Origin: Patescibacteria group bacterium
GTDB taxonomy: Bacteria > Patescibacteriota > Minisyncoccia > 2-02-FULL-40-12 > GWA2-44-9
Direction of reading: 5' to 3'
DNA: 64,000 nucleotides
NCBI GenBank assembly: GCA_038065515.1
Contig: JBBTQV010000016.1
Span: 5,462-69,461 of the forward strand
The notes beneath the pieces are model-generated. The model had not been told where the DNA came from and searched no databases. It worked only from the letters and a program-made list of their open reading frames with translations. Position 1 is the stretch's first letter. Every line of letters begins with the position of its first letter. A program made the translations under genes and the position numbers. This document shows, piece by piece, positions 8,992 to 49,332 of this stretch.

Positions 8992-9394
8992 ATCCTGCAA
9001 GTTCGTTTGCAGGTTTTCGCGCACCACCGTGCTGACCGTTGTATAAAGCCGATCCATCAATCCCGCACAGCATCTCAATGGTACCCGCGCCTCCGGAGTG
9101 CGCATTGAAGAATGAGGTAACATCATACACTGCACCGTTGATAGCGGTCCAGCAGCTGGAGCGGGAGTTGTGTGCGGCAACCTGCGCCATTGTGTAATTT
9201 CCCGCAGGCAACGGTGTGGGAGTTTTTGAGACGACACCGCTTGGTGTCGGAGTAGAGGTCGGCACACCAACACCGCTCGGCGTTGGTGTCAGTCCGGTCG
9301 GCGTGGCTGCGGGACCTGGATTCGAACCAAGATATTCACCTCCAGAGGGTGACGGCCTACCGTTAGCCGATCCCGCAAAATGCGCAGAAATCAT
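8966..9394 (-). CDS. cytochrome b5-like heme-binding domain protein with Thr/Pro-rich linker
   Basis: C-terminus HNSRSSCWTAINGAVYDVTSFFNAHSGGAGT...LYNGQHGG matches the cyt-b5 fold with both His ligands. Preceded by TPTPSGVGVPTSTPTPSG linker. ORF-track start 9694 is unlikely; ATG 9394 chosen. Confidence 0.5.
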   Translation of the reverse strand: MISAHFAGSANGRPSPSGGEYLGSNPGPAATPTGLTPTPSGVGVPTSTPTPSGVVSKTPTPLPAGNYTMAQVAAHNSRSSCWTAINGAVYDVTSFFNAHSGGAGTIEMLCGIDGSALYNGQHGGARKPANELAGFKIGVLAN

Positions 9395-11040: not shown

Positions 11041-11765
11041 GAAAGAATGAATTTCGAAAGGTCGCCTTCGAGCACTTTCTCGGGCTGGGATGATTTCACG
11101 CCGGTGCGGTGATCTTTCACCATCTGGTACGGATGTAGCACATAACTGCGGATCTGACTCCCCCAGTCCACTGACCCTGATTTCAGTTCCGGTTTGAGCT
11201 GGCTCAACTCGGATACTTTTGACTGCTCCATGAGCACCGCCAACCGTGAGGTCAGAAGTGTCAACGCCTTTTCTTTGTTCTGCGCCTGACTCCGTTCGGT
11301 CTGCCCGACGACGGTGAGCCCGGTCGGTTTATGACGGACACGAACCGCCGTTTCCACCTTGTTCACATTCTGACCGCCCTTGCCCCCGGAGCGAAAAGTC
11401 TCGTACTCCAGATCCTGGGGATTCAACGCGAAATCCTTCGCAAGAACAATCGGCATGATCTGCACCAGCGCAAACGATGTATGCCGGAGTCCTTTTGCGG
11501 AGAACGGACTCATACGCACGAGCCGGTGCACGCCACCCTCCCCCTTCAGTGTATCATACACCGCCGGTCCGACCACTTCATACGATGCACTCTTGATGCC
11601 TTTCTGTTCCCCGAGCGATTCGTCGAGCATCGTGAATTTCCAACCGCGGGAAGCGGCGTACCGCTGATACATGCGCGCCAACATGGACGCCCAATCCTGG
11701 GCATCCACCCCCCCGGCTCCCGCGAACACGGAGAGCACGGCCTTATTTGGTTCATAGGTAAACAC
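11037..11765 (-). CDS. prfB: peptide chain release factor 2, lacking N-terminal domain 1
   Basis: SPF tripeptide (RMSPFSAK), GGQ motif ([10 protein letters not shown]), [11 protein letters not shown]. Alignment to RF2 begins near E. coli residue ~115. GTG start. Only ~50 bp separate it from the upstream gene. No CTT-TGA-C frameshift site. Confidence 0.8.
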
Positions 11766-12953: not shown

Positions 12954-13661
12954 TTATTTGAGGAGTATGTCGTTGAGAAATCCAACATTGGCAATCAGGG
13001 ACAGTTTTTGAGTAAATATGAGAACACCGAGAGCGAGGAGGACGACTCCGAAAACGAAATTGAGATACTTGAGTCCCGTCGCATGACGATTGATAAAGTC
13101 TGCGGCCTGACCTGTAAAGGCTCCCACAGCGAGGAATGGGATGCCCAGCCCCAACGCATAAGTAAGAAGGAGAATGAATGCCGAACCGGGTTGCGTTGCC
13201 GCAAGGCCGAGGATAACCCCTAATGCCGGGCCGACGCACGGCGTCCAACCGACGGCAAATGCCAAACCAAAGAGAAAGGAGGTGGCGTATCGGGATTTGA
13301 ATATTGTCTTTACCCCGAATTTATATTCCTTTTCCAAAAAAGGAATTTTGATGAGTCTCACCAAATAGAGACCGAAGAAGATAATCATCACTCCCCCCAT
13401 ACGAGAGAGCCATGCTTGCACATCATACGCAATCCCCTCAAGGAGCGTGTTCAGAAGCACCCCGAGTAGGGCAAAGACGACACCAAAACCGAGAACAAAG
13501 AACGCGCTGTTGATGAATATCTCTTTGCGCTTCGAACCCGTTTCGGTAGTACTTGCTCCCGCAAGATAAGCGAGAAAACCGGGAATGATGGGGAGAACAC
13601 AGGGCGCAAGAAATGAAACAAGTCCTCCTAAAAATGCACCAACAACAAGGCTTTCTGTCAT
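12954..13661 (-). CDS. ccdA: cytochrome c-type biogenesis protein CcdA (DsbD-family transmembrane electron transporter)
   Basis: LAPCVLPIIPGFLAY and TPCVGPALG conserved Cys motifs. 6 TM helices. Confidence 0.85.
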   Translation of the reverse strand: MTESLVVGAFLGGLVSFLAPCVLPIIPGFLAYLAGASTTETGSKRKEIFINSAFFVLGFGVVFALLGVLLNTLLEGIAYDVQAWLSRMGGVMIIFFGLYLVRLIKIPFLEKEYKFGVKTIFKSRYATSFLFGLAFAVGWTPCVGPALGVILGLAATQPGSAFILLLTYALGLGIPFLAVGAFTGQAADFINRHATGLKYLNFVFGVVLLALGVLIFTQKLSLIANVGFLNDILLK

Positions 13662-13664
13662 ATA

Positions 13665-14618
13665 TTATTGGGCCAAAGCCTTGTTAATCTCCATGTCATA
13701 GCGCTTGTCATCCCATCCTTCAGGTGACTTGAGAATCCTTTGGCCGTTCTTCACGAACACTTTCGTGTGTTGATAGGCCACGCCAAATTCCCTAGCCAAG
13801 TTTTTTTCGTCGACATCGGTTTGATCGTCGTTATAATTCACGCGGAAACCGATTGCTTTGTCCGTGGTCAGCTCCTTAAATACATTCTGCAGTATCGGAA
13901 ATTCGGCCCTGCAGACCGGACACCAGTTTGCATAAAAGTACAGGACAACGAGCTTGTCCGTCTTTAATGCCGCATCATAGTCGGCTTTGGCAAAATCAAG
14001 AAGCGGGGCGGTCTCGCCGGCCAAAACTGTTCCCGTATATTTTGCCATCATGGCTCCGTCTTCCTTTTTCTCCATCATCAAAGCACCCAATGTATCCCTT
14101 GACAGATCGCCACAAGATACGAATGTCTTTATTTCATCTTTTGATTTATGCGCCATCACCGCAAGAGGCAGTTTGCTGTTCAGTGTCTCTAGTGATACAT
14201 CGAGGATGGTTTCCGCTTTTCCGTTCAGCACCGCGCTTAACGGATATCCTATTGCGCCCGGGGTCGAGCATGAGCCCAAGTGGATGTGTGACGGCTGTGG
14301 AATGCCGACGGCGCCGGAAGAAATTTCAACTACCACCTTCGTCTTCCCATTCATGTCGCTTAGCGTCGCCTTACCCGTCTGACCGGAAGCGTTCAGCGCG
14401 TTCATTGCTACCACCGCGCCCTTCTTCTCCATCGCTTTCGTCGCTACCGCATCATCTTTTTTCATAGCATCTTCTGCGGGCTTACCCATTGCCTCTTCTT
14501 TGACCGGGGGCTCTTGTCGCGTTGCATAATAAGCGATCCCGCCAATTGCCACGACCACCGCGACGATTGCCATAGCGAAAGGCATCGCGAAACCTTTTTG
14601 TGAATAATTGTTTATCAT
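13665..14618 (-). CDS. membrane-anchored thioredoxin-like protein with possible CHRD-like N-terminal domain
   Basis: N-terminal TM. Central PSHIHLGSC segment (CHRD-like, tentative). C-terminal YFYANWCPVCRAEFP thioredoxin active site. Confidence 0.55.
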   Translation of the reverse strand: MINNYSQKGFAMPFAMAIVAVVVAIGGIAYYATRQEPPVKEEAMGKPAEDAMKKDDAVATKAMEKKGAVVAMNALNASGQTGKATLSDMNGKTKVVVEISSGAVGIPQPSHIHLGSCSTPGAIGYPLSAVLNGKAETILDVSLETLNSKLPLAVMAHKSKDEIKTFVSCGDLSRDTLGALMMEKKEDGAMMAKYTGTVLAGETAPLLDFAKADYDAALKTDKLVVLYFYANWCPVCRAEFPILQNVFKELTTDKAIGFRVNYNDDQTDVDEKNLAREFGVAYQHTKVFVKNGQRILKSPEGWDDKRYDMEINKALAQ

Positions 14619-16066: not shown

Positions 16067-16138
16067 GAGCCGACCCCGGGACTTGAACCCGGAACCCTTC
16101 GCTTACGATGCGAATGCTCTACCATTGAGCTAGGTCGG
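16067..16138 (-). tRNA. tRNA-Thr (anticodon CGT)
   Basis: Manual fold: acceptor GCCGACC/GGTCGGC, D-arm GCTC-AATGGTA-GAGC, anticodon loop ATCGTAA, T-arm CCGGG-TTCAAGT-CCCGG. CCA not encoded. Confidence 0.8.
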
Positions 16139-16143
16139 CATCT

Positions 16144-16587: not shown

Positions 16588-16665
16588 ATCCCATCATACC
16601 AACCCGGTAACCATTGTACAGCCAGACAGTGGTACCTAGCATGCATAACGATTTACCATCGAAGA

Positions 16666-16735
16666 GCGGATGACGGGAATCGAACCCGTGTCTCAACCTT
16701 GGGAAGGTCGCGTTCTACCATTGAACCACACCCGC
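16666..16735 (-). tRNA. tRNA-Gly (anticodon CCC)
   Basis: Manual fold: acceptor GCGGGTG/CATCCGC (one G-U), D-arm GTTC-AATGGTA-GAAC, anticodon loop TTCCCAA, T-arm ACGGG-TTCGATT-CCCGT. Confidence 0.8.
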
Positions 16736-27091: not shown

Positions 27092-27553
27092 CCGGCAGGG
27101 TCGGTGCGTGCGATAAGCCGAGTTCTGTCCCCCATCATGTCGCCATGGTGGGGGGACCGTCATTTATCTGCGATGTGTGTTGCCACACACCTGTAGCCCA
27201 CCTTCGCTCTTGCGAGCTTCGGCGGACAATAGCGTACGAACTTTTCGCTGTGCCCTCCATAGCTTTAGCGACGGAGGGAATCAACGCTGTACTTGCACTC
27301 CGGTAAGGATTTAGCCGTTTCACCCCCGGTCTTGTTACCCGCGACCGGGATTGAGCGTAGCCTCCGATAGAATCGATGGCCCTGGGTCAGCTCTCCTGCA
27401 CCTTTCGGCGCAGATCGTCTCTGCTCGCACCTCTTGGCTTGCGCCAGACGGGAATTACCCGCTACCATTCTCAGTGCCATGTGGCACCGTAGTGCTCGGA
27501 CTTTCCTCACTCAGCCTTGCGGCCAGGCGCGACAGTCTGCACGCACCGACTCC
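27092..27553 (-). ncRNA. rnpB: RNase P RNA (bacterial type A)
   Basis: Minus strand carries GAGGAAAGTCCGAGC (P4 5' strand) and ACAGAACTCGGCTTATCG (P4 3' strand). P1 pairs GTCGGTGCGTGC with GCACGCACCGAC. GGGGGTGAAACGG J11/12-like. -10 TATACT at 27557-27562. Ends approximate (+/-10 nt). Confidence 0.8.
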
Positions 27554-33168: not shown

Positions 33169-34164
33169 TCATGCTTCATCGTAATACCCAAGTACTTTGA
33201 GCCCTGGTAGCTGTGTGCCCGCAAGAAATGCGAGCATCGCTCCCCCGCCGGTGGAAACAAATGTAAACTTCTCCAGCAGTCCGAGAACATCAACCGCAGA
33301 AATGGTATCACCGCCCCCGATAATCGACAATGCGCCGCTTGCGGCGATGGCACGGGCGATCGCTTCGGTTCCGGCCATGAATCGCGCATCCTCAAAACGC
33401 CCCATGGGCCCGTTCCAAATAATGAGCTTCGCTCCTTCCGCGAGCACCGTAAATGCCCGCGTCGTCTCGGGCCCGATGTCCCGTGCGTGGCCATCGTCCA
33501 TGATAAAATCCGTCGGCAAGTGCAGTCGTGAGTCTTGCGTATTGATATTTGTCATCCCTGCGAGAATCTCATTGGCAGCCACACCGCCGACGGCAACATG
33601 CTCTGCTCGTACGATAAGATGTTCGATGACCGGTATCTTCGTGCTCGCCTTGGCACCGCCGATGTAGACTACTTTCCCCTGCGCGGGTGCATTAATGGCT
33701 TTCACAAGCTGTCGGGTTTCTTCCTGTATCAGCAAGCCGGCATACGCGGGCAAGAGTTTTGCCGCCGCAACAACCGATGCATGCTCGCGATGGCACACCG
33801 CGAACGCACTATTTACATAGAGGTCGCATCCCGCGACCAGCTCGCGTGCAAACGATTCGTCGTTGGTTTCTTCTCCGGGATGCTGGCGCGTGTTCTCCAA
33901 CAGCACTACCTCATCCCCGAATGTAACGCCAAGCAATTGCTCCAATTGCGGTTTGAGCGGTTCAAAACTTGGCACCGCGGAGATGTGTGCCGCCAACACT
34001 ACATGCGCGCCGCGCGAAAGCAGATAGTCCAGCGTTGGCTTCTGCCGCACGATGCGATAGCGTTCGGCAATCGTGCCATCAGTATTCACAGGTACATCAA
34101 AATCCGCGCGCAGAAATACTTTCTTGCCGCGTATATTCCCTGCTTGGTCGAGTGTACGCATCAT
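33169..34164 (-). CDS. pgk: phosphoglycerate kinase (compact, 331 aa)
   Basis: VFLRADFDVP, LENTRQHPGEE, IIGGGDT, STGGGA. ATG overlaps the RT1 stop (ATGA). Confidence 0.9.
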   Translation of the reverse strand: MMRTLDQAGNIRGKKVFLRADFDVPVNTDGTIAERYRIVRQKPTLDYLLSRGAHVVLAAHISAVPSFEPLKPQLEQLLGVTFGDEVVLLENTRQHPGEETNDESFARELVAGCDLYVNSAFAVCHREHASVVAAAKLLPAYAGLLIQEETRQLVKAINAPAQGKVVYIGGAKASTKIPVIEHLIVRAEHVAVGGVAANEILAGMTNINTQDSRLHLPTDFIMDDGHARDIGPETTRAFTVLAEGAKLIIWNGPMGRFEDARFMAGTEAIARAIAASGALSIIGGGDTISAVDVLGLLEKFTFVSTGGGAMLAFLAGTQLPGLKVLGYYDEA

Positions 34165-35150
34165 ATGCTCTCTCGAATATTATAGGTATTTCCGTGTCCC
34201 AACAACCCCCGATATGACTGCCTTGTTGCTTCTACCGGACATTCCCGCAACCGTCTGAACATCCGGCGCTTTGTATTCATCCGCAGTACTCGGTGATCCG
34301 GGAAGTGCGCCCAGCCCAGGAAGTCGATGCCGGAAGCTAGAGTGCGGAGAGAAACCTTGTGTGGATGCAAATCGAGATGAAGTTTTTCCTGCAGAAAGTC
34401 GCCGATACGAGACAGGAGTTCCTGCAAATAAGACTTGTCGCCGTGCAGAATTGCAAAGTCGTCCGCGTAGCGGATGTAGTGTTTCACTTTGAGCGCGTGT
34501 TTCACCCACTGATCAAACTCGTTCATATAGATATTCACCATGAGCTGTGATGTCAGGTTGCCGAGAGGGAGGCCCGGGAAGAAGCTGGAAATAATGCGGG
34601 ACAGAAGCCAGAGGGTATCGGAGTCAGGAATGTGTTTAGCTATGATGTCGTTCAGAATGTCGTGGTCTATACTGGCAAAAAACTTGCGGATGTCGCACTG
34701 TAGCACCCAGCAGGTGCGGGTATGATTCTGGGAGACCCGGTACCCAAAGGCGCGAAACCGGTTTAGTGCACGATGCGTGCCTTTGCCCAGCTGACAGGAG
34801 AAGGAGTCGGCAATGAATTTCCTGCTGAAATAGTGACACAGCACCCGATGCACGGCGTGGTGCAGAAGGCGGTCCCGCACACTTGCTTTGTGGATACTCC
34901 GTGGCTTTGGGTCAGAAATGTTAAATGCTTCGTATGGTGAGTGGTGATATGTTTTTGCAATCAGATCGTTATGGAGCATAACAACATTATCCATTAGGTT
35001 GTGCTCAAAATCCTGCACATCTCTACGGGCCCGCTTGCCGCCCAAAAACTCCTTCCATGCTCCAAGGAGATTTTCCAAAGAAATGATATGCTGAAAGCCC
35101 TCATCAAGCTGAATATGACTCATTCGCCCAATAATACCCCCCCGGCTCAT
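34161..35150 (-). CDS. diversity-generating retroelement reverse transcriptase (DGR-1 RT)
   Basis: RT motifs: LPLGNLTSQLMVNIYMNEFD (DGR-specific SQ in motif 4) and YIRYADDFAIL (motif 5/C). A TR/VR pair is adjacent. True start may be the internal Met at 35123 (MSHIQLDEGF). Confidence 0.85.
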   Translation of the reverse strand: MSRGGIIGRMSHIQLDEGFQHIISLENLLGAWKEFLGGKRARRDVQDFEHNLMDNVVMLHNDLIAKTYHHSPYEAFNISDPKPRSIHKASVRDRLLHHAVHRVLCHYFSRKFIADSFSCQLGKGTHRALNRFRAFGYRVSQNHTRTCWVLQCDIRKFFASIDHDILNDIIAKHIPDSDTLWLLSRIISSFFPGLPLGNLTSQLMVNIYMNEFDQWVKHALKVKHYIRYADDFAILHGDKSYLQELLSRIGDFLQEKLHLDLHPHKVSLRTLASGIDFLGWAHFPDHRVLRMNTKRRMFRRLRECPVEATRQSYRGLLGHGNTYNIRESI

Positions 35151-35508
35151 TCCACTACTCCAAAGCGCAAAAAGCGCTTACGGACTTTGGTATAGCTATC
35201 TTCAGACACTCCCGAAAACCCATCGGCACTCCCTGGGCGTGAGGGTTGATGCGTTATTTATTGAAATCATTGAGACACTCGCAGTCGCGAGTTTTCTGGT
35301 GCGTGAAGAAAAAATCCCTTATGTGCGTATTGCTATCAGAAAAACGGATACCCTCAAAATACTACTGATGGTGCTCTGGGAAACAAAATCACTCGACGAT
35401 AAAAAGTACATCGCACTATCGCTCAAGATAGACGAGATTGGCAGGATGCTTGGCGGATGGAGCGGTCAACTTCAAAAACAAAACTCCCCCACGAAGGGAG
35501 AGAAATGA
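35115..35508 (+). CDS. avd: Avd-like four-helix-bundle protein (DGR-1 accessory variability determinant), N-terminal segment out of frame at a C7 tract
   Basis: ORF-track GTG 35239..35508. The same frame upstream (from 35119) encodes ...AYGLWYSYLQTLPKTHRHSLG, matching the Avd/IVS N-terminal helix, but has no start. ATG 35115 is in the -1-adjacent frame and is joined by deleting one C from the C7 run at 35137-35143. Opposite strand to the RT. Confidence 0.6.
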
Positions 35509-35515
35509 AGAGAGT

Positions 35516-35647
35516 TGCGCGGGGCCAAGAACACCCACCGATTGTCAGGGTACCAGGCATTGTCGGGCTTACCGTAGTTGCTGTTCAACCACCGGTCACT
35601 GCTGTCGTGTTCGACATTGAACACCTTCAGGTAGTCGTCCGAGTCCG
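35516..35647 (-). repeat. DGR-1 template repeat (TR1)
   Basis: 132 bp, near-identical to the target1 3' end. Differs at 14 positions, every one an adenine in TR (coding/minus strand). Lies inside the spurious ORF 35472..35768. Confidence 0.85.
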
Positions 35648-35883
35648 TGTATAAAGGATGCCGTCTATGCCACTGTCCCTCGAATGCTCTTGGGACTGTA
35701 TCGTATTCGGCATCATTAATGCCATAACATCCTTTACCAAGTATCTTCATTTTTTGAAGTTTCTGCATATGTCCTCCATCTCAAACCGTAATCGGAGATG
35801 TTCTCAACATACGGATACTGGATTCGGCAGCGGGAAACCGTAATCTCCCACATATTCGCCTAATACCAAAGTGAGTATACCAG

Positions 35884-35925
35884 AATAAAGAAAGTGGCCG
35901 TACACGCTTTCGCATGCACGGCCAC
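35884..35925 (-). terminator. rho-independent terminator after DGR-1 target gene
   Basis: gtggccgt...acggccac 8-bp stem followed (minus strand) by TTTCTTTATT. Confidence 0.5.
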
Positions 35926-35988
35926 CAGACGGGGCCGAAGGACTAAGGTTCAGAGGTCAGACAGACCAAAGAAACTAAGTGCCGAGGA

Positions 35989-36603
35989 CTAAGTCGTGCG
36001 CGGGGCCAAGAACACCCACCGACCGGCAGGGTACCAGGCATGGCCGGGCTCACCGTAGTAGCTGTACAACCACCGGCCACTGCCGACGTGTTCGACACTG
36101 AACACCTTCAGGTAGCCGCCCGAGTCCGCGAGGGGCTCCATGGCAATCAGGAGCCATTCTCCGGGGGGTTGATCAGGGTACTGCAGACGAAGCTGCGGAC
36201 CGACCTCGGCGGGACAGAGCCGGAGTCCCAACTCCAGAGCACGGGCGTAGATGGTATCGCGGCGAGCGGCCTGGGTGAAGCCCAGATCAGTGCCGGAGAC
36301 GATAACGAGATCGAGCTTGGTCTTCTTGGGGCTCATGCTGTTCTTGGCCAGGATCCGACCGGCGTAGTCGCTGATGCGGAAGCCCGCGGATACCAGCGAT
36401 GCGCGGAGCCCGTCCACGGTCTTGAAGGTACCAAGTGTGATGGTCTTCCAGACCGGGAACTGGGGCCAGGGGTCCTCCTTGCGGAGGAACCGCTTGAAGG
36501 CGGCGAACCACTGGGGACCTTCGGGTCCGGCGAGTTTCTCAAAAAATGCCTTGAACGGTCCGGCCGTCTCGGCCAGAGCGCTTGCGTCGAGCATGATGGA
36601 CAT
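35989..36603 (-). CDS. DGR-1 target protein (204 aa, no signal peptide) with C-terminal variable region
   Basis: C-terminus ...YLKVFSVEHVGSGRWLYSYYGEPGHAWYPAGRWVFLAPR is the VR counterpart of TR1 (N/D/K in TR become Y/G/H/E/A/V here). Confidence 0.75.
   Translation of the reverse strand: MSIMLDASALAETAGPFKAFFEKLAGPEGPQWFAAFKRFLRKEDPWPQFPVWKTITLGTFKTVDGLRASLVSAGFRISDYAGRILAKNSMSPKKTKLDLVIVSGTDLGFTQAARRDTIYARALELGLRLCPAEVGPQLRLQYPDQPPGEWLLIAMEPLADSGGYLKVFSVEHVGSGRWLYSYYGEPGHAWYPAGRWVFLAPRTT
35997..36128 (-). repeat. DGR-1 variable repeat (VR1) at 3' end of target gene
   Basis: Aligned base-by-base to TR1. All 14 mismatches correspond to TR adenines. GC-rich IMH-like end (GGCCCCGCGCA) shared with TR. 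Confidence 0.85.
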
Positions 36604-36672: not shown

Positions 36673-37530
36673 TTAATTACACTCCTGTCTTCCTGATTTG
36701 TCAATCCCCTGTATCTCATCTTCTGCAATCTCGCTTGCAATGGTGAGAATCCGCGCAAAATCTTCAGCGCGGACGGACGCCCCGCCGACGAGAACGCCGG
36801 AAATTTCGGAGCGTTGCAAAAACTCATGCGCATTGGCAGGCGTCACCGAACCGCCATAGAGAAAGGCGATGTGCGACACATCGAAATGATCGGCTAACGC
36901 TTCGCGGATGAGACTCATCGACTGCACGGCGCTGGCGGGCGTGTCGGGTTTGGCATCAGGGTTGGTGCTAATGGCCCACACCGGCTCGTACGCTATGATG
37001 CACTGCCCTACCTGTCCGGGCGTCAATCCGCGGAATGTCGCGGCGACCTGCGCTTTGAGCGCATCCTGCCAATCGCCCTCGCGAGCTTGCCCGCCGAAGC
37101 CTTGGCGTAGGCGGGTGCGCTCACCGACGCACACAATAGGCACCAATCCGTTGCGGAGCGCCGCCCGCAGTTTTTCGTTGACCATTTCGTCATCTTCATT
37201 GAGCTTGTAGCGCCGGTCACTGTGCCCAACAATCACATACCGCACGCCGAGTTTTGCCAGTTGCGGACCGCTCACCTCGCCCGTCTGTGCGACATCATCA
37301 CGCGCCGCAATATCCTGCGCACCCAACCGCGCTACATCGGCAAGCACGCCTTCGCCCAACATTGCGGCGACATCTTCCAGAAAAACAAACGGCGGACAGA
37401 ACACAATATCCAGCTGTTGCGCCCCTGCGCCCAGTCCGCGGACATGTTCGTCAATTTTCGCGACAATATCCTGCGCCTCGGCAAGAGTCTTCGGATTCAT
37501 CTTCCAATTCGCGATGATTAACTTTTTCAT
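36673..37530 (-). CDS. tpiA: triosephosphate isomerase
   Basis: IANWKMN, GHSDRR, IAYEPVWAIST, GGSV. ATG overlaps the RT2 stop (ATGA). Confidence 0.9.
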   Translation of the reverse strand: MKKLIIANWKMNPKTLAEAQDIVAKIDEHVRGLGAGAQQLDIVFCPPFVFLEDVAAMLGEGVLADVARLGAQDIAARDDVAQTGEVSGPQLAKLGVRYVIVGHSDRRYKLNEDDEMVNEKLRAALRNGLVPIVCVGERTRLRQGFGGQAREGDWQDALKAQVAATFRGLTPGQVGQCIIAYEPVWAISTNPDAKPDTPASAVQSMSLIREALADHFDVSHIAFLYGGSVTPANAHEFLQRSEISGVLVGGASVRAEDFARILTIASEIAEDEIQGIDKSGRQECN

Positions 37531-38561
37531 GTGGAATAGAGCCACGCAACATTGCGCAATTCCTGTTCTATCTTATACGCATTCCCGTGGCCGAGCAATC
37601 CGAGATAGGACTGGAGCGTAGTCTGGACTGGCCTCTTTACGATGTTACGGAACGCTCGTCGTTTCGTTACTGTTCGCAGAACTTTGTGGGTTGGAAAATA
37701 GGACCATCCAAGAAAGTCGACACCGGATGCCAATGTCTTGAGCGCAATCTTCCGAGGATGCAAGTGCAACAACAAATAGCATTGCAGGAAGTCGCTTACG
37801 CATGGAACGAGCGAGACCAGAAAAACTCTGTTGGGATGCAGTATGACAAAATCATCTGCGTAGCGGATATAGTGAGGCAAACCCATCCGGTTCTTCATGA
37901 AGCAATCCAGCTCATTCATATAGATATTGGCCAGTAGTTGCGATGTCAGATTACCCAACGGCAAACCCCTACCAGGGCTTGCATGGAAACTGCTGATGAC
38001 TTCTTGAAGAAGCCTCATAACCAAAGCATCTGAAATCGTCCGCGCAAGAATGGCCGATAGTCTGACATGGTCGATGCTGGCAAAGAATTTTCGGATGTCA
38101 CACTTCAACACCCAGCAGGTCCGAGTATTGTTTTCGCTTGTCTTGTTGATGAAAGAACGGAATCGCGCTCCGGCTGCATGAATCCCCTTGTCTACCCGAC
38201 AAGAAAATGAATCGGAAATGAATAGATGGTCAAAGATTGGATATAACACTCGATGGATTGCGTGATGGAGCAAACGGTCGCGAACTGTTGCCTTATGGAT
38301 ATGGCGCGGCTTGGGATCGCAAATATGAAAGCTGTGATACGGACCATGCCGATACGCTCCATTGGCAAGCTCGTCGTGCAGGTATAGGATGTTGTCCATC
38401 AGTTCCCGCTCGAATTCTTGGACATCAACCTTGTCCCGCTTGCCAGACACGAACTCTTGCCATGCGAGCAGAAGATTTTCCAGAGAAATTATTTCCTCAA
38501 ACATACAAAAACCTATATGACCCCCCCCCCAACAAGACTTACCGATACTGCAAAAGGCCAC
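37527..38561 (-). CDS. diversity-generating retroelement reverse transcriptase (DGR-2 RT), paralogue of RT1
   Basis: LPLGNLTSQLLANIYMNELD and YIRYADDFVIL. Roughly 60% identical to RT1 by eye. True start probably MFEEIISLE at 38504. Confidence 0.85.
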   Translation of the reverse strand: MAFCSIGKSCWGGGHIGFCMFEEIISLENLLLAWQEFVSGKRDKVDVQEFERELMDNILYLHDELANGAYRHGPYHSFHICDPKPRHIHKATVRDRLLHHAIHRVLYPIFDHLFISDSFSCRVDKGIHAAGARFRSFINKTSENNTRTCWVLKCDIRKFFASIDHVRLSAILARTISDALVMRLLQEVISSFHASPGRGLPLGNLTSQLLANIYMNELDCFMKNRMGLPHYIRYADDFVILHPNRVFLVSLVPCVSDFLQCYLLLHLHPRKIALKTLASGVDFLGWSYFPTHKVLRTVTKRRAFRNIVKRPVQTTLQSYLGLLGHGNAYKIEQELRNVAWLYST

Positions 38562-38874
38562 CGCCGCATACCTGCTCTGGCATGAGTGTCTTCCCCGTTT
38601 ACCGCGATTGACTCGGTTTACCCTCGGCTCAAAAATAGATCGACTCTATCTCGAGACTATCGAATACATGCTCATCGCCGGATATACCGCCCGCGAACGA
38701 AAGCTCGTTATCGTTCAACAAGCAAGCGCCAAACTCGATACGCTCAAGTTTTTCTTGAAAATCGCCTGGCAGGCAAAAGCGCTGTCTCCAAAAAAGTATG
38801 CGGAGCTGTCAGCGCCAGTCGCCGAGATTGGTAAGATGCTCGGCGGCTGGCATAAACAGTTGACCAGCGAATAG
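38517..38874 (+). CDS. avd: Avd-like four-helix-bundle protein (DGR-2), N-terminus out of frame at a C10 tract
   Basis: ORF-track TTG 38608..38874. Same frame upstream from 38521 encodes PPPQQDLPILQKATAAYLLWHECLPRLPRL, homologous to the Avd1 N-terminal region. ATG 38517 is joined if the C10 run (38521-38530) were C9. Confidence 0.6.
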
Positions 38875-39001
38875 ACTTGCGGACTGCGGCGAAACGGTAG
38901 TTCTCGTTCCACTCGTTGTCGAACCAGTTCAGGTTCAGGTTGCGTTCATGGTCGTTCCGGTTCAGATACGCCACATTGCGGTTGTCATTGACCTTGGCCA
39001 C
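38875..39001 (-). repeat. DGR-2 template repeat (TR2)
   Basis: 127 bp matching the target2 3' end with 12 differences, all at TR adenines. Lies inside the spurious ORF 38744..39004. Begins 1 nt after the Avd2 stop. Confidence 0.85.
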
Positions 39002-39236
39002 CATGTGCAGAGTGCCATCCGTATCACTGTCCTTTAGCTATCTTCGGGACTGTATTTTATCCGGAGCCTGTGCTCACCAGCACCCTGCACCAAGTATATT
39101 CATTGGAAGAGAATTGCGATGGCACACTGACGACGAACATGTTCGCAGTCATTCTGTCCGGTCGCCAATTCTAGAATTCGGCCGCCCGAAGCCGTAGCCG
39201 CGGACCGCATCGCCTACTATCCACAGACAGTATACA

Positions 39237-39278
39237 CAAAAAAGAAACCGCCGTGCGAGCACGATGCTCGCACGGCGG
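39237..39278 (-). terminator. rho-independent terminator after DGR-2 target gene
   Basis: 13-bp perfect stem ccgccgtgcgagc/gctcgcacggcgg with 5-nt loop, then T-run on minus strand. Confidence 0.55.
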
Positions 39279-39284
39279 AAGGAA

Positions 39285-39305
39285 CCAAGGCTCCCAGCAC
39301 CTTGG
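39285..39305 (-). promoter_or_regulatory. hairpin immediately 3' of VR2 (candidate DGR target-recognition/IMH-associated stem-loop)
   Basis: ccaagg-ctcccagca-ccttgg. Located about 30 nt past the VR2 end. DGR VRs are typically followed by such a hairpin. Confidence 0.4.
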
Positions 39306-39335
39306 CCAGTGCCAAGAGCCCCAGGTTCCCAGTGC

Positions 39336-39980
39336 TTACTTGCGGACTGCGGCGAAACGGTAGTTCTCGAACCACTCGCTGTCGAACCAGTACAGGTTCA
39401 GGTAGCGTACACGGTCGTACCGGTCCAGATACGCCACATAGCGGTCGTCATGGACCTTGGCCACGGTGCCCAGCGCAACGATGGGAAACTCCAACTGGAG
39501 ACCCGAGTGTTGGATGCCGATCCAGAGCAACTCCAAGAAGGTGGCCGGACGCAGACCTTGGCGGTCCATGTCAGCGATGACCTCGTCCGAGGTCATCCGC
39601 TTGTTGTAGTGGAGCAGATGGACTTCGGCGGTACGGGTGCCGTCTCCGGTACCGAAACTGAAATGCTTGACGATGTTGGAGTTGACCCAGTCGTACTTGC
39701 CGTCGGCGATGAGCTGGACCGTTGTCTTGGTCAGATCCATCATCACGGAGATGGTGCGGTCGAGGAACTCGATGGCGGTACGCTTGGTACCGACGATGAG
39801 TTGGGCAATTTTGCCGCGCAAGTCCTTGCTCGTGAGGATTCGCTCCAGGTCGGCGTCGTTGCCACCCAGCGCGAGCACCGCATCCACGAGGGCCTTGAAC
39901 ACCTCGAACGCCTTACCCCAACCCTTGAGAAACTCACTCTTCTGACGAGCCATAGCTCGCCTCCTTCGTTTGTGGCTCAT
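39336..39980 (-). CDS. DGR-2 target protein (214 aa, no signal peptide) with C-terminal variable region
   Basis: C-terminus VAKVHDDRYVAYLDRYDRVRYLNLYWFDSEWFENYRFAAVRK versus TR-encoded VAKVNDNRNVAYLNRNDHERNLNLNWFDNEWNENYRFAAVRK. Confidence 0.75.
   Translation of the reverse strand: MSHKRRRRAMARQKSEFLKGWGKAFEVFKALVDAVLALGGNDADLERILTSKDLRGKIAQLIVGTKRTAIEFLDRTISVMMDLTKTTVQLIADGKYDWVNSNIVKHFSFGTGDGTRTAEVHLLHYNKRMTSDEVIADMDRQGLRPATFLELLWIGIQHSGLQLEFPIVALGTVAKVHDDRYVAYLDRYDRVRYLNLYWFDSEWFENYRFAAVRK
39338..39464 (-). repeat. DGR-2 variable repeat (VR2)
   Basis: All 12 mismatches to TR2 are at TR adenine positions. Ends at the target stop codon. Confidence 0.85.
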
Positions 39981-49248: not shown

Positions 49249-49332
49249 GCCGCTGTGGCGGAATTGGCAGACGCAATTGACTCAAAATCAATCGGGAGCA
49301 ATCCCATGTCGGTTCGACTCCGACCAGCGGCA
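49249..49332 (+). tRNA. tRNA-Leu (anticodon CAA), class II with long variable arm
   Basis: Acceptor GCCGCTG/CAGCGGC, anticodon loop CTCAAAA, variable arm CGGGAGCAATCCCATG, T-arm TCGG-TTCGACT-CCGA. Confidence 0.8.

Follow-up and report, generated by a model that had tools for sequence, protein, structure and literature searches.

In the window, the 64-kb stretch of groundwater Patescibacterial DNA analyzed here, two DGR cassettes lie 3.4 kb apart in the same orientation, separated by tpiA (36673-37545) and flanked as a pair by pgk and galT. This arrangement raises the question of whether the second cassette, DGR2, is a functional mutagenic retroelement and how it is related to its neighbor, DGR1. 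Judged from its sequence, DGR2 is very probably a functional chromosomal DGR that belongs to the Patescibacteria (CPR) clade and has the B3 layout, TR-(avd)-RT.

Repeats, reverse transcriptase, and target of DGR2

The repeats and the minus-strand genes of DGR2 are as follows.

37527-38504, minus strand: RT2, the DGR reverse transcriptase, 325 aa from the probable start ATG at 38504 (the listed ORF runs to a GTG at 38561)
38875-39001, minus strand: TR2, the template repeat, paired with VR2, with weak homology out to 39010
39338-39464, minus strand: VR2, the variable repeat, coding for the final 42 residues of target2
39336-39980, minus strand: target2, helical in its N-terminal region, with a C-type-lectin-fold domain at the C-terminus that finishes in VR2
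39279-39335, minus strand: CTKGG-rich segment directly after VR2, containing a CCAAGG/CCTTGG hairpin (39285-39290/39300-39305)

TR2 and VR2 were compared on the minus strand, which is the coding strand. Each repeat is 127 nt long, and the two differ at 12 positions, all of which are adenines in TR2. With an A content of 37/127 in TR2, the chance of finding 12 of 12 mismatches on A is about (37/127)^12 = 4e-7. Recomputation thus reproduced the original prediction of a 127-bp pair with 12 differences confined to TR adenines, and no non-adenine site was found. A repeat search also recovered the pair, lengthened to 136 nt. Nearly all TR2 adenines (35 of 37) occupy codon position 1 or 2, and nine codons are AAC. 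The 23 A-containing codons set a ceiling of about 10^20.7 protein variants. No further VR-like copies of TR1 or TR2 were detected within the 64-kb window.

VR2 had been placed at the 3' end of its target gene and indeed stops at the stop codon of ORF 39336-39980; VR1 checked likewise against TR1. The final 27 nt of TR2 and VR2 are identical, and divergence starts right after them. This identical 3' end, followed by the inverted repeat that forms the hairpin at 39285-39305, constitutes an IMH-like feature with a putative role in homing. Across 70 related loci, the pentamers CTTGG, CTTAG, and CCCTT were enriched 13- to 22-fold in the 75 nt past the VR.

The RT2 ORF (37527-38561) matched Pfam RVT_1 (E 4.6e-20) and carries the motifs LPLGNLTSQ and the catalytic YADD. 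Its best match among solved structures was the Bordetella phage DGR RT (bRT; 8ub7_A, E 1.4e-46), whereas the top group II intron RT reached 2e-23. A search of NCBIfam with RT2 gave no DGR-RT-specific match and a group II intron model under its cutoff. RT2 probably starts at the ATG at 38504, since the upstream GTG extension crosses a run of 10 G. More than 574 relatives of RT2, with RT identities of 57-62%, were found in species genomes. In 78 of 80 loci examined, an antisense avd gene lies directly upstream of the RT gene, and most loci have A-biased TR/VR pairs; 70 loci passed the A-bias filters applied later.

Translation of target2 probably begins at M10 (39953), giving 205 aa, since AAGGAGG precedes this codon and the closest homologue begins there. 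We recognized no transmembrane or secretion signal in target2, and neither target1 nor target2 belongs to a family in Pfam or NCBIfam. VR2 maps onto a C-type-lectin/FGE-like fold. The two targets had been called unrelated, and BLASTP between them indeed gave no match. However, both are C-type-lectin folds that can be aligned profile to profile in register, so that this claim does not hold; the relatedness is visible only by profile-profile and fold comparison.

Transcription units and the structured template RNA

Three minus-strand features lie between VR2 and TR2, past the CTKGG-rich segment.

39238-39278, minus strand: intrinsic terminator of target2, with its stem at 39278-39248 (14 bp, 11 GC pairs), a 3-nt loop, and the tail TTTCTTTTTT
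39229-39238, minus strand: putative promoter of the TR RNA with an extended -10 box, TGTGTATACT, directly past the target2 terminator
39002-39222, minus strand: structured 5' leader of the TR RNA, with two hairpins carrying a UAC-type loop and then a 12-bp long-range helix

Both the ccaagg/ccttgg hairpin and the strong terminator predicted after VR2 are present. The extended -10 box is common to DGR1 and DGR2, and its consensus in 68 loci is Tg.TA.AaT. A consensus promoter scanner made no call at the box at 39229-39238, which was read from the sequence. The proposal that target2 is a transcription unit apart from TR-RT is supported by this succession of a terminator and a TGnTAnAAT promoter-like box, a layout repeated in 68 related loci.

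We observed a conserved structure in the leader, present ahead of every TR; its 12-bp helix encloses a domain whose end is a few nt short of TR2. RNAalifold on 61 loci predicted 43 pairs, of which 39 show compensatory changes. In the alignment, 94.1% of cells were paired, compared with 41-49% when partners were slid, and the covariation score was 0.80 compared with 0.12-0.17; none of 500 shuffles matched the observed values. The strand of the leader follows from its numerous conserved G-U pairs. Neither the TR leader nor any DGR RNA here is represented in Rfam, whose sole subthreshold match was a ctRNA model on the terminator hairpin. For the 150 nt that follow the TR on its 3' side, RNAalifold gave no consensus structure, as the gappy alignment defeated the method. 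By eye, most relatives have a hairpin and a U tract after the TR, a point in which DGR2, which has neither, differs from other CPR DGRs.

These features suggest the following mechanism. The target2 gene (39953-39336) would be transcribed alone, with termination at 39278-39248. The extended -10 box would start a separate noncoding RNA made of the structured leader, about 200-215 nt long, and the 127-nt TR2, the promoter and the RNA ends being predicted. A complex of RT and Avd would copy TR2 to cDNA from a putative priming site, misincorporating opposite template adenines. The cDNA would then replace VR2 through putative integration steps in which the 27 nt shared at the 3' end of the repeats serve as a guide, and the CTKGG-rich segment beyond VR2 probably helps to guide it. 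Replacement of VR2 would recode up to 23 codons of a face predicted to bind a ligand.

The avd gene and its start-proximal repeat

Cassette 2 had been described without an accessory gene, a description that has to be corrected, since an Avd gene lies on the opposite strand between TR2 and RT2.

38517-38874, plus strand: avd2, the accessory variability determinant, antisense to TR and RT, with an ATG at 38517 and its body in the +1 frame relative to this ATG
38521-38530, unstranded: C10/G10 homopolymer that follows the avd2 start codon and precedes Avd helix 1; read on the RT strand, it is located 17-26 nt ahead of the RT2 ATG

RT2 and avd2 are arranged head to head, and their start codons are separated by 13 nt. 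The 88-aa avd2 ORF at 38608-38874 matched Pfam bAvd (E 2.9e-13). The open sequence from 38521 codes for helix 1 in frame and contains no ATG, GTG, or TTG. Removal of one C yields a protein of 118 aa that covers the full length, positions 1-104, of NCBIfam NF033474 DivGenRetAVD (E 9.4e-22; 77.3 bits, with a cutoff of 80). The match of Avd to the bAvd structure 4dwl was weak, and Avd2 lacks the C-terminal KQNSP..GEK tail found in many relatives. The neighboring avd1, 44% identical to avd2, is also +1 out of frame, behind a C7 tract. Avd accompanies about 74% of DGRs and is not obligatory. By the Bordetella paradigm, full-length Avd2 would be absent unless frameshifting occurs, since avd2 has no in-frame start; located out of frame behind C10, Avd would have to come from slippage (of DNA, RNA polymerase, or the ribosome) or be made in a subpopulation of cells only.

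A simple-sequence repeat just past the avd start codon was present in 154 of 160 related loci, as C7-C13 in most and as (CT)n, (GA)n, or (CA)n in eight. The avd gene is in frame in about 31% of 94 scorable loci (frame classes 29:40:25), and three loci that are 99.6-99.9% identical to one another carry G10, G8, and G6AG4. Protein-level conservation of Avd helix 1 persists in out-of-frame loci. Two other readings of this region were rejected. Genetic code 25 (UGA = Gly), which would lengthen avd upstream, was ruled out by three in-frame upstream stops in avd1 and a GC content of 54%. The G run was ruled out as the Shine-Dalgarno sequence of RT, as it ends at least 16 nt before the ATG and is replaced by dinucleotide repeats in eight loci.

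The frame offsets at poly-C tracts could be sequencing or assembly errors, all avd genes being truly in frame. Illumina accuracy falls in long G runs, and one contig of the lineage (L002) breaks at the G10 tract and is degraded beyond it. However, G10 was found without variation in the window and four independent assemblies of the lineage (L001/L088, L089, L003, and L090), a comparison with few independent copies, since similar contigs collapsed in exact-protein look-ups. Moreover, avd1 is out of frame at a mere 7 C, the eight dinucleotide repeats sit at the same position, and the offsets are spread across all three frame classes in two independent sets of loci drawn from many studies. We thus consider such errors an unlikely explanation.

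Even less probable is that DGR2 is a decaying relic, inactivated by the frameshift in avd2, with the TR/VR pattern left as a fossil. The +1 offset of both avd genes behind C tracts would fit this, as would the decay of DGR1 in the sister strain L001, in which RT1 has a large internal deletion and TR1 is missing. Against it, the frame offset is not a mark of a pseudogene, since most loci of the clade are out of frame and helix 1 is conserved in them. Furthermore, L001 is 99.4% identical, with 16 differences over 2601 nt. RT2 is intact, TR2 is identical, and both strains share C10, yet 13 of these differences fall in VR2, all at TR-adenine sites. An identical TR combined with adenine-only VR divergence in two near-identical strains is population-level evidence of activity in an uncultivated lineage. 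The comparison indicates that DGR2 was active recently, the strain differences in VR2 recording past and not present activity.

In one reading, the repeat that separates the start codon of avd from its four-helix bundle would gate Avd production throughout the clade, both cassettes included. That Avd is gated by such repeats across the clade and that the TR RNA stands alone with a 5' structured domain are, as a joint reading of these sequences, about evenly balanced between right and wrong. If it is right, targeted hypermutation would be a stochastic trait, either reversibly ON/OFF or low-level, with the gate depending on slippage of the DNA, stuttering of RNA polymerase, or frameshifting of the ribosome on CCC-C; rapid switching is disfavored by the unchanged G10 of the window and four assemblies of this lineage. 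Gating by the repeat would account for how the cost of a hypermutator is contained in tiny genomes and would warn annotators that "truncated" avd calls are not pseudogenes. A TR RNA structured 5' and not 3' would imply that the RT-Avd-RNA complex is organized differently from that of the Bordetella prototype.

Simple-sequence contingency loci are the poly-G/C tracts of Campylobacter, Neisseria, Helicobacter, and Bordetella. The avd genes resemble them in carrying a 7- to 13-nt G/C run or a dinucleotide repeat just inside the 5' coding region, in showing all three frame states among relatives, and in varying in tract length among near-identical strains. Contingency loci switch surface or restriction-modification genes, whereas avd encodes an accessory factor of a mutagenic retroelement. 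Unlike in contingency loci, the avd tract also sits in the 5' leader of a divergent RT gene, and switching of avd is putative. We did not find the avd repeat or the 5' leader RNA, both clade-wide features, described earlier. A full-text literature search combining DGRs with repeat slippage or frameshifting returned nothing relevant, and either feature may be mentioned in the primary CPR DGR literature. Both regularities would open the regulation and RNA recognition of CPR DGRs to experiment.

Relation to DGR1 and to known systems

DGR1 (34161-36603, minus strand) comprises the following features.

34161-35123, minus strand: RT1
35115-35508, plus strand: avd1, with its C7 tract at 35137-35143
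35516-35647, minus strand: TR1, followed by a hairpin and T tract at 35504-35484
35997-36128, minus strand: VR1, at the end of target1
35989-36603, minus strand: target1, the DGR1 target gene, with its terminator at 35926-35893

TR1 and VR1 are 132 nt long and differ at 14 positions, all TR adenines. RT1 and RT2 had been judged by eye to be about 60% identical, in agreement with an aligned identity of about 59-59.5% over 315 aa. This is lower than the median over all pairs of 83 RTs of the clade (62.6%). Each of the two ranks only 49th or 61st of 82 relatives for the other, and the smallest group of a neighbor-joining tree that holds both takes in all 83 sequences. It is hardly credible that one DGR was recently duplicated in tandem around tpiA and that the targets diverged later: the common orientation and internal layout at a distance of 3.4 kb, as well as several short stretches of similar nucleotide sequence in RT, avd, and the TR leader, would suit this, but RT1 and RT2 are less alike than the between-species median, each with dozens of closer relatives in other lineages, their ancestor spans the whole tree, the Avds are 44% identical, the targets are related at the profile and fold level only, and the common nucleotide blocks are conserved throughout the clade. 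The sequences thus indicate that RT1 and RT2 are not a recent duplication. Of the predicted second, paralogous cassette, a DGR with its own target stands, and a local duplication does not, since the two RTs are no closer than RTs between species.

Of the CPR DGRs, 90% are reported to have the B3 architecture, TR-(avd)-RT (Wu et al. 2018, PMC5758913), and DGR clade 2 is CPR restricted (Roux et al. 2021, PMC8144416). DGR2 fits B3 in its gene order, reversed avd, and Patescibacterial host. Its target/VR, TR, reversed avd, and RT have the order and strand arrangement of CPR DGRs, and, as in these, the target is small and cellular with no recognizable domain and the TR/VR differences are adenine specific. 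There is no difference in kind, and what is specific to this locus is the presence of two cassettes 3.4 kb apart flanking tpiA, together with the missing hairpin and U tract after TR2 and the missing Avd2 tail. As a DGR, DGR2 adds little to a CPR clade that is very large and has already been catalogued.

The mechanistic prototype is BPP-1 (mtd-avd-TR-brt), whose bRT is the nearest to RT2 among solved structures and whose bAvd is homologous to Avd. Both systems have a C-type-lectin-fold target with a C-terminal VR, an AAC-rich TR, and an inverted repeat after the VR. In DGR2, however, the gene between TR and RT is avd, in the opposite orientation, so that the 3' flank of the TR is antisense avd and not a structured spacer as in BPP-1, where this spacer provides the priming adenosine (PMC12875486). 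Conversely, the DGR2 clade has a conserved structured RNA 5' of the TR, unlike BPP-1. The DGR2 target also has its own terminator, and the element is chromosomal and not phage borne. Treponema denticola TvpA and other FGE-type C-type-lectin DGR targets are likewise among the closest known systems.

Two DGRs within 6 kb had been regarded as unusual. Such proximity is rare, as a second DGR-type RT within 6 kb was found in 1 of 80 species-level loci. Genomes with several DGRs are already documented, however, and make up roughly 10% of DGR-bearing complete genomes (PMC5758913), so that a close pair is not new in kind. One small genome can thus keep two anciently diverged cassettes adjacent, each diversifying its own small lectin-fold protein, and one of two neighboring cassettes can be lost in a sister strain.

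The DGR2 cassette and its recent activity

The two diversity-generating retroelement (DGR) cassettes of the window lie in the gene order pgk, DGR1, tpiA, DGR2, galT. Their chromosomal location was confirmed by a housekeeping context of RNase P RNA and tRNA genes. The relevant features are as follows.

9307-9377, 16068-16139, 16665-16735 and 49249-49332: four tRNA genes
27098-27548, minus strand: RNase P RNA of bacterial class A, scoring slightly over the Rfam gathering threshold
35239-35508, plus strand: avd1 ORF, the DGR1 counterpart of avd2 (44% identical)
37527-38561, minus strand: RT2 ORF, encoding an RVT_1 reverse transcriptase (RT)
38608-38874, plus strand: avd2 ORF, between TR2 and RT2 (accessory variability determinant, Avd; Pfam bAvd, E = 2.9e-13)
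38875-39001, minus strand: TR2, the template repeat
39278-39248, minus strand: intrinsic terminator with a 14-bp stem, downstream of VR2
39285-39305: CCAAGG/CCTTGG hairpin, downstream of VR2
39338-39464, minus strand: VR2, the variable repeat
39336-39980, minus strand: target2 ORF

The coordinates that the original prediction had assigned to the repeats, the RT2 and target ORFs, the hairpin and the terminator all hold. TR2 and VR2 differ at 12 positions over 127 nt, and, as predicted, all 12 coincide with TR adenines (chance of about 4e-7, given the 37 adenines in TR2); the same test on DGR1 gave 14 of 14. VR2 was also correctly placed at the 3' end of its target gene, since its end is the stop codon of the ORF. 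Translation of target2 probably starts at M10 (39953), which is preceded by AAGGAGG and is also the residue at which the nearest homologue begins; RT2 probably starts at the ATG at 38504. Nearly all TR2 adenines (35 of 37) occupy codon positions 1 or 2, with nine AAC codons, and TR2 could in principle specify some 10^20.7 protein variants at most. The closest solved structure to RT2 was by far that of the Bordetella phage DGR RT (8ub7_A, E = 1.4e-46; group II intron RTs, 2e-23), and Avd2 weakly matched the bAvd structure. The proposed search for additional variable repeats, run inside the 64-kb window, found no further copies of TR1 or TR2.

The predicted parts list of TR, RT and target was sound as far as it went, but it had overlooked the reverse-strand avd. 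With avd2 on the plus strand between TR2 and RT2, the cassette order becomes target/VR, terminator, TR, reversed avd, RT. DGR2 is a genuine, correctly identified DGR of a known and abundant kind (Patescibacterial [CPR] clade, B3 architecture). Wu et al. 2018 (PMC5758913) reported this TR-(avd)-RT architecture for 90% of CPR DGRs. Roux et al. 2021 (PMC8144416) assigned elements of this type to DGR clade 2, reported to be limited to Patescibacteria and to have targets that lack recognizable domains. The proteins identical or 93% identical to target1 or target2 come from MAGs labeled "Patescibacteria group bacterium" at NCBI, and over 6 kb the window is 100% identical to contig L089, which comes from Hainich groundwater (well H41). 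A scan of one genome per species recovered at least 574 loci with RT2-related RTs. The best 80 of these (55 to 62% identity to RT2) are mostly named as Patescibacterial lineages; 78 have a reversed avd immediately upstream of the RT, and most have a TR/VR pair at near-fixed spacing with A-biased mismatches (70 passed our A-bias filters). By this shared order and spacing, DGR2 is an ordinary member of a very large family with a rigid organization. In many of its loci, such as L006 (7464-7484), the avd and RT start codons overlap head-to-head, typically in a 21-nt ATG-N15-CAT stretch that reads M..LNF.H in Avd and MK.QL..H in RT, so that the ATG of each gene is a His codon of the other. In the window, the overlap is 9 nt in DGR1 (35115-35123) and the two ATGs are 13 nt apart in DGR2.

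Activity of DGR2 was assessed by comparison with a sister strain (L001, GCA_964360775.1) that matches the window at 99.4% identity over 13 kb. The DGR2 span shows 16 differences and no indels in 2601 nt. Thirteen of the 16 differences fall inside the 127-nt VR2, every one of them where the TR has an adenine, and TR2 itself is unchanged. This is the signature expected of mutagenic retrohoming after the strains diverged; judged from this comparison, DGR2 was recently active.

Origin of the two cassettes and kinship of their targets

The identity of RT1 and RT2, put at roughly 60% by eye, came to 59% on alignment. Within the clade they have no close kinship, and calling the cassettes paralogous should not imply a local duplication. 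Among 83 RTs of the clade, RT1 and RT2 are 59.5% identical, below the 62.6% median of all pairs; dozens of RTs from other species are closer to RT1, and likewise to RT2, than the two are to each other. The suggested phylogeny, run as a neighbor-joining tree of the same 83 RTs, gave a common node for RT1 and RT2 that spans the entire set. All of this makes a recent local duplication an unlikely origin of the pair. In L001, DGR2 is intact and DGR1 has decayed: the remnant between tpiA and pgk (13227-14569) lacks TR1, its RT1 is cut to a 105-aa ORF by a large internal deletion, and the target1 position is taken by another protein, 227 aa long, whose C-terminal end is similar. The pgk region beside this remnant is 88.8% identical to the window, versus about 99% elsewhere, a local drop that suggests recombination near DGR1/pgk.

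Two DGRs within 6 kb had been called unusual. This holds weakly. Of the best 80 loci, inspected with up to 6 kb of flank, a single one (L051) has another DGR-type RT close by, and that RT differs in type (37% identity; avd and RT on one strand). The MAG H51-bin041_1 has two loci on separate contigs. Multiple DGRs per genome have nevertheless been recorded in about 10% of DGR-bearing complete genomes (PMC5758913), and a tandem pair, although uncommon, is no new kind of arrangement. By itself, this pair, in which DGR2 lies beside a cassette of ancient divergence with a target of the same fold, is of mild interest to the specialist.

The targets had been described as unrelated, a view that did not survive more sensitive comparison. 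BLASTP detected no similarity between target1 and target2, and no Pfam or NCBIfam family matched either of them. Detectable homologues number 610 for target1 and 51 for target2. The two family profiles, however, gave a 139-column alignment in hhalign (E = 2.8e-4, probability 41%) that keeps register across the VR. AlphaFold2 models of both proteins were confident (pLDDT 88.6 and 93.2) and alike in strand and helix order, and the top Foldseek matches of target2 were C-type lectin domains, with weak E-values. On this evidence, target1 and target2 are distant members of one compact C-type-lectin-fold class. Each begins with a short helical region, and a membrane or secretion signal is evident in neither. 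One target2-family gene has no RT within 6 kb and lies about 23 kb from the nearest clade RT (L004 and L041, both on the 652-kb contig CAZBFM010000001.1); it could be either a remote or an orphan target.

Transcription units and template RNA

Both target genes are closed by a strong terminator. Directly past it, DGR1 and DGR2 share a TG-n-TATACT box, a putative extended -10 promoter; in a 68-locus alignment the consensus is Tg.TA.AaT, preceded by a T-rich tract. The stretch from this box to the TR is a structured leader of about 215 nt.

39002-39222, minus strand: leader of DGR2
35648-35872, minus strand: leader of DGR1

The leader is conserved in 61 loci (alignment A5, 5' of the TR), where RNAalifold predicted 43 base pairs in eight helices, 39 of the pairs with compensatory changes. 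With the structure held fixed, 94.1% of cells were paired, versus 41 to 49% when partners were slid by 1 to 3 columns; the covariation score was 0.80 versus 0.12 to 0.17 in the slid controls, and none of 500 shuffles reached the observed values. Conserved G-U pairs identify the structured strand as the TR strand, and a 12-bp long-range helix stops a few nucleotides short of the TR. No Rfam family matched the leader. Directly after the TR, most loci, including DGR1 (35504-35484, minus strand; columns ~70-170 of A6, the alignment 3' of the TR) but not DGR2 or L028, have a hairpin and then a U tract. This hairpin sits inside the antisense 3' end of avd, in the part encoding the KQNSP..GEK tail. 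Given this 3' element, the template appears to be a stand-alone transcript, some 400 nt in length. The Bordetella prototype has its structured element for RT recruitment and for priming 3' of the TR (PMC12875486), whereas the conserved structure of the CPR-clade TR RNA lies 5' of it.

In the 75 nt after the VR, the pentamers CTTGG, CTTAG and CCCTT were enriched 13- to 22-fold across 70 loci, often as several spaced copies. The corresponding segments of the window are 39279-39335 (minus strand), which includes the CCAAGG/CCTTGG hairpin, and 35930-35990 (minus strand). Such a segment may be a target-recognition element.

A repeat inside avd

Together with the leader RNA, a repeat inside avd is the clade-wide regularity most worth following; both are leads and not established mechanisms. 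The listed avd1 and avd2 ORFs lack helix 1. A helix-1-like sequence is encoded by the open frame further upstream, and neither of these upstream frames contains an ATG, GTG or TTG. Each avd instead has a C run ahead of this region.

38521-38530, plus strand: C10 run of avd2, with an ATG (38517) 4 nt ahead, in frame -1 relative to the Avd body
35137-35143, plus strand: C7 run of avd1, with an ATG at 35115 overlapping the RT1 start codon region; same behavior as avd2

Both copies are thus +1 out of frame. With one C removed, avd2 encodes 118 aa that align to the full length of the NCBIfam DivGenRetAVD profile (E = 9.4e-22), with a score of 77.3 bits against a cutoff of 80.

A repeat between the avd start codon and helix 1 was present in 154 of 160 related loci, at the same position: poly-C/G of 6 to 13 nt (mode 9 to 10) in 146, and in the other 8 a dinucleotide repeat of at most 18 units, either (CT)n, (GA)n or (CA)n. 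The remaining 6 loci lack both. The flanking Patescibacterial sequence, 854 kb in all, contains 71 G/C runs of at least 8 nt, and 68 of these lie at this site. The ATG was in frame with the Avd body in 19 loci of the genome set, +1 in 20 and +2 in 17; an independent metagenome set gave 10, 20 and 8. The pooled 29:40:25 (about 31% in frame) is not clearly different from random, and conservation of helix 1 at the protein level persists in out-of-frame loci. The tract reads G10, G8 and G6AG4 in three loci that share 99.6 to 99.9% identity across 800 nt. In our reading of these sequences, the repeat itself would be under selection and its frame would not, in which case slippage would be needed to make Avd. 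That dinucleotide repeats can stand in for the homopolymer favors slipped-strand switching at the DNA level, as in contingency loci, over a dedicated poly-G RNA signal or a required Pro-Pro-Pro. At the poly-C loci, the slippage may also be that of the ribosome, by ±1 on CCC-C, or of a stuttering RNA polymerase. Systematic miscalling of homopolymers could produce the frame offsets at the longest tracts, but we consider it improbable, and it leaves C7 and the dinucleotide repeats unexplained. The two strains between which VR2 has diversified share the out-of-frame C10, so over evolutionary time the offset does not abolish function. We found no description of the avd repeat in the searchable literature, a scope outside which Paul et al. 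2017, the primary CPR DGR paper, falls.

The window's lineage has G10 in the window and in four independent assemblies. The DGR2 G tract evidently breaks short-read assemblies; a same-lineage contig of an independent assembly (L002, Hain_H52; 11409-11473) ends just past it, reading G11 and then degraded sequence. The sole other C/G homopolymer of at least 7 nt in the 64-kb window is a C7 at 11708-11714.
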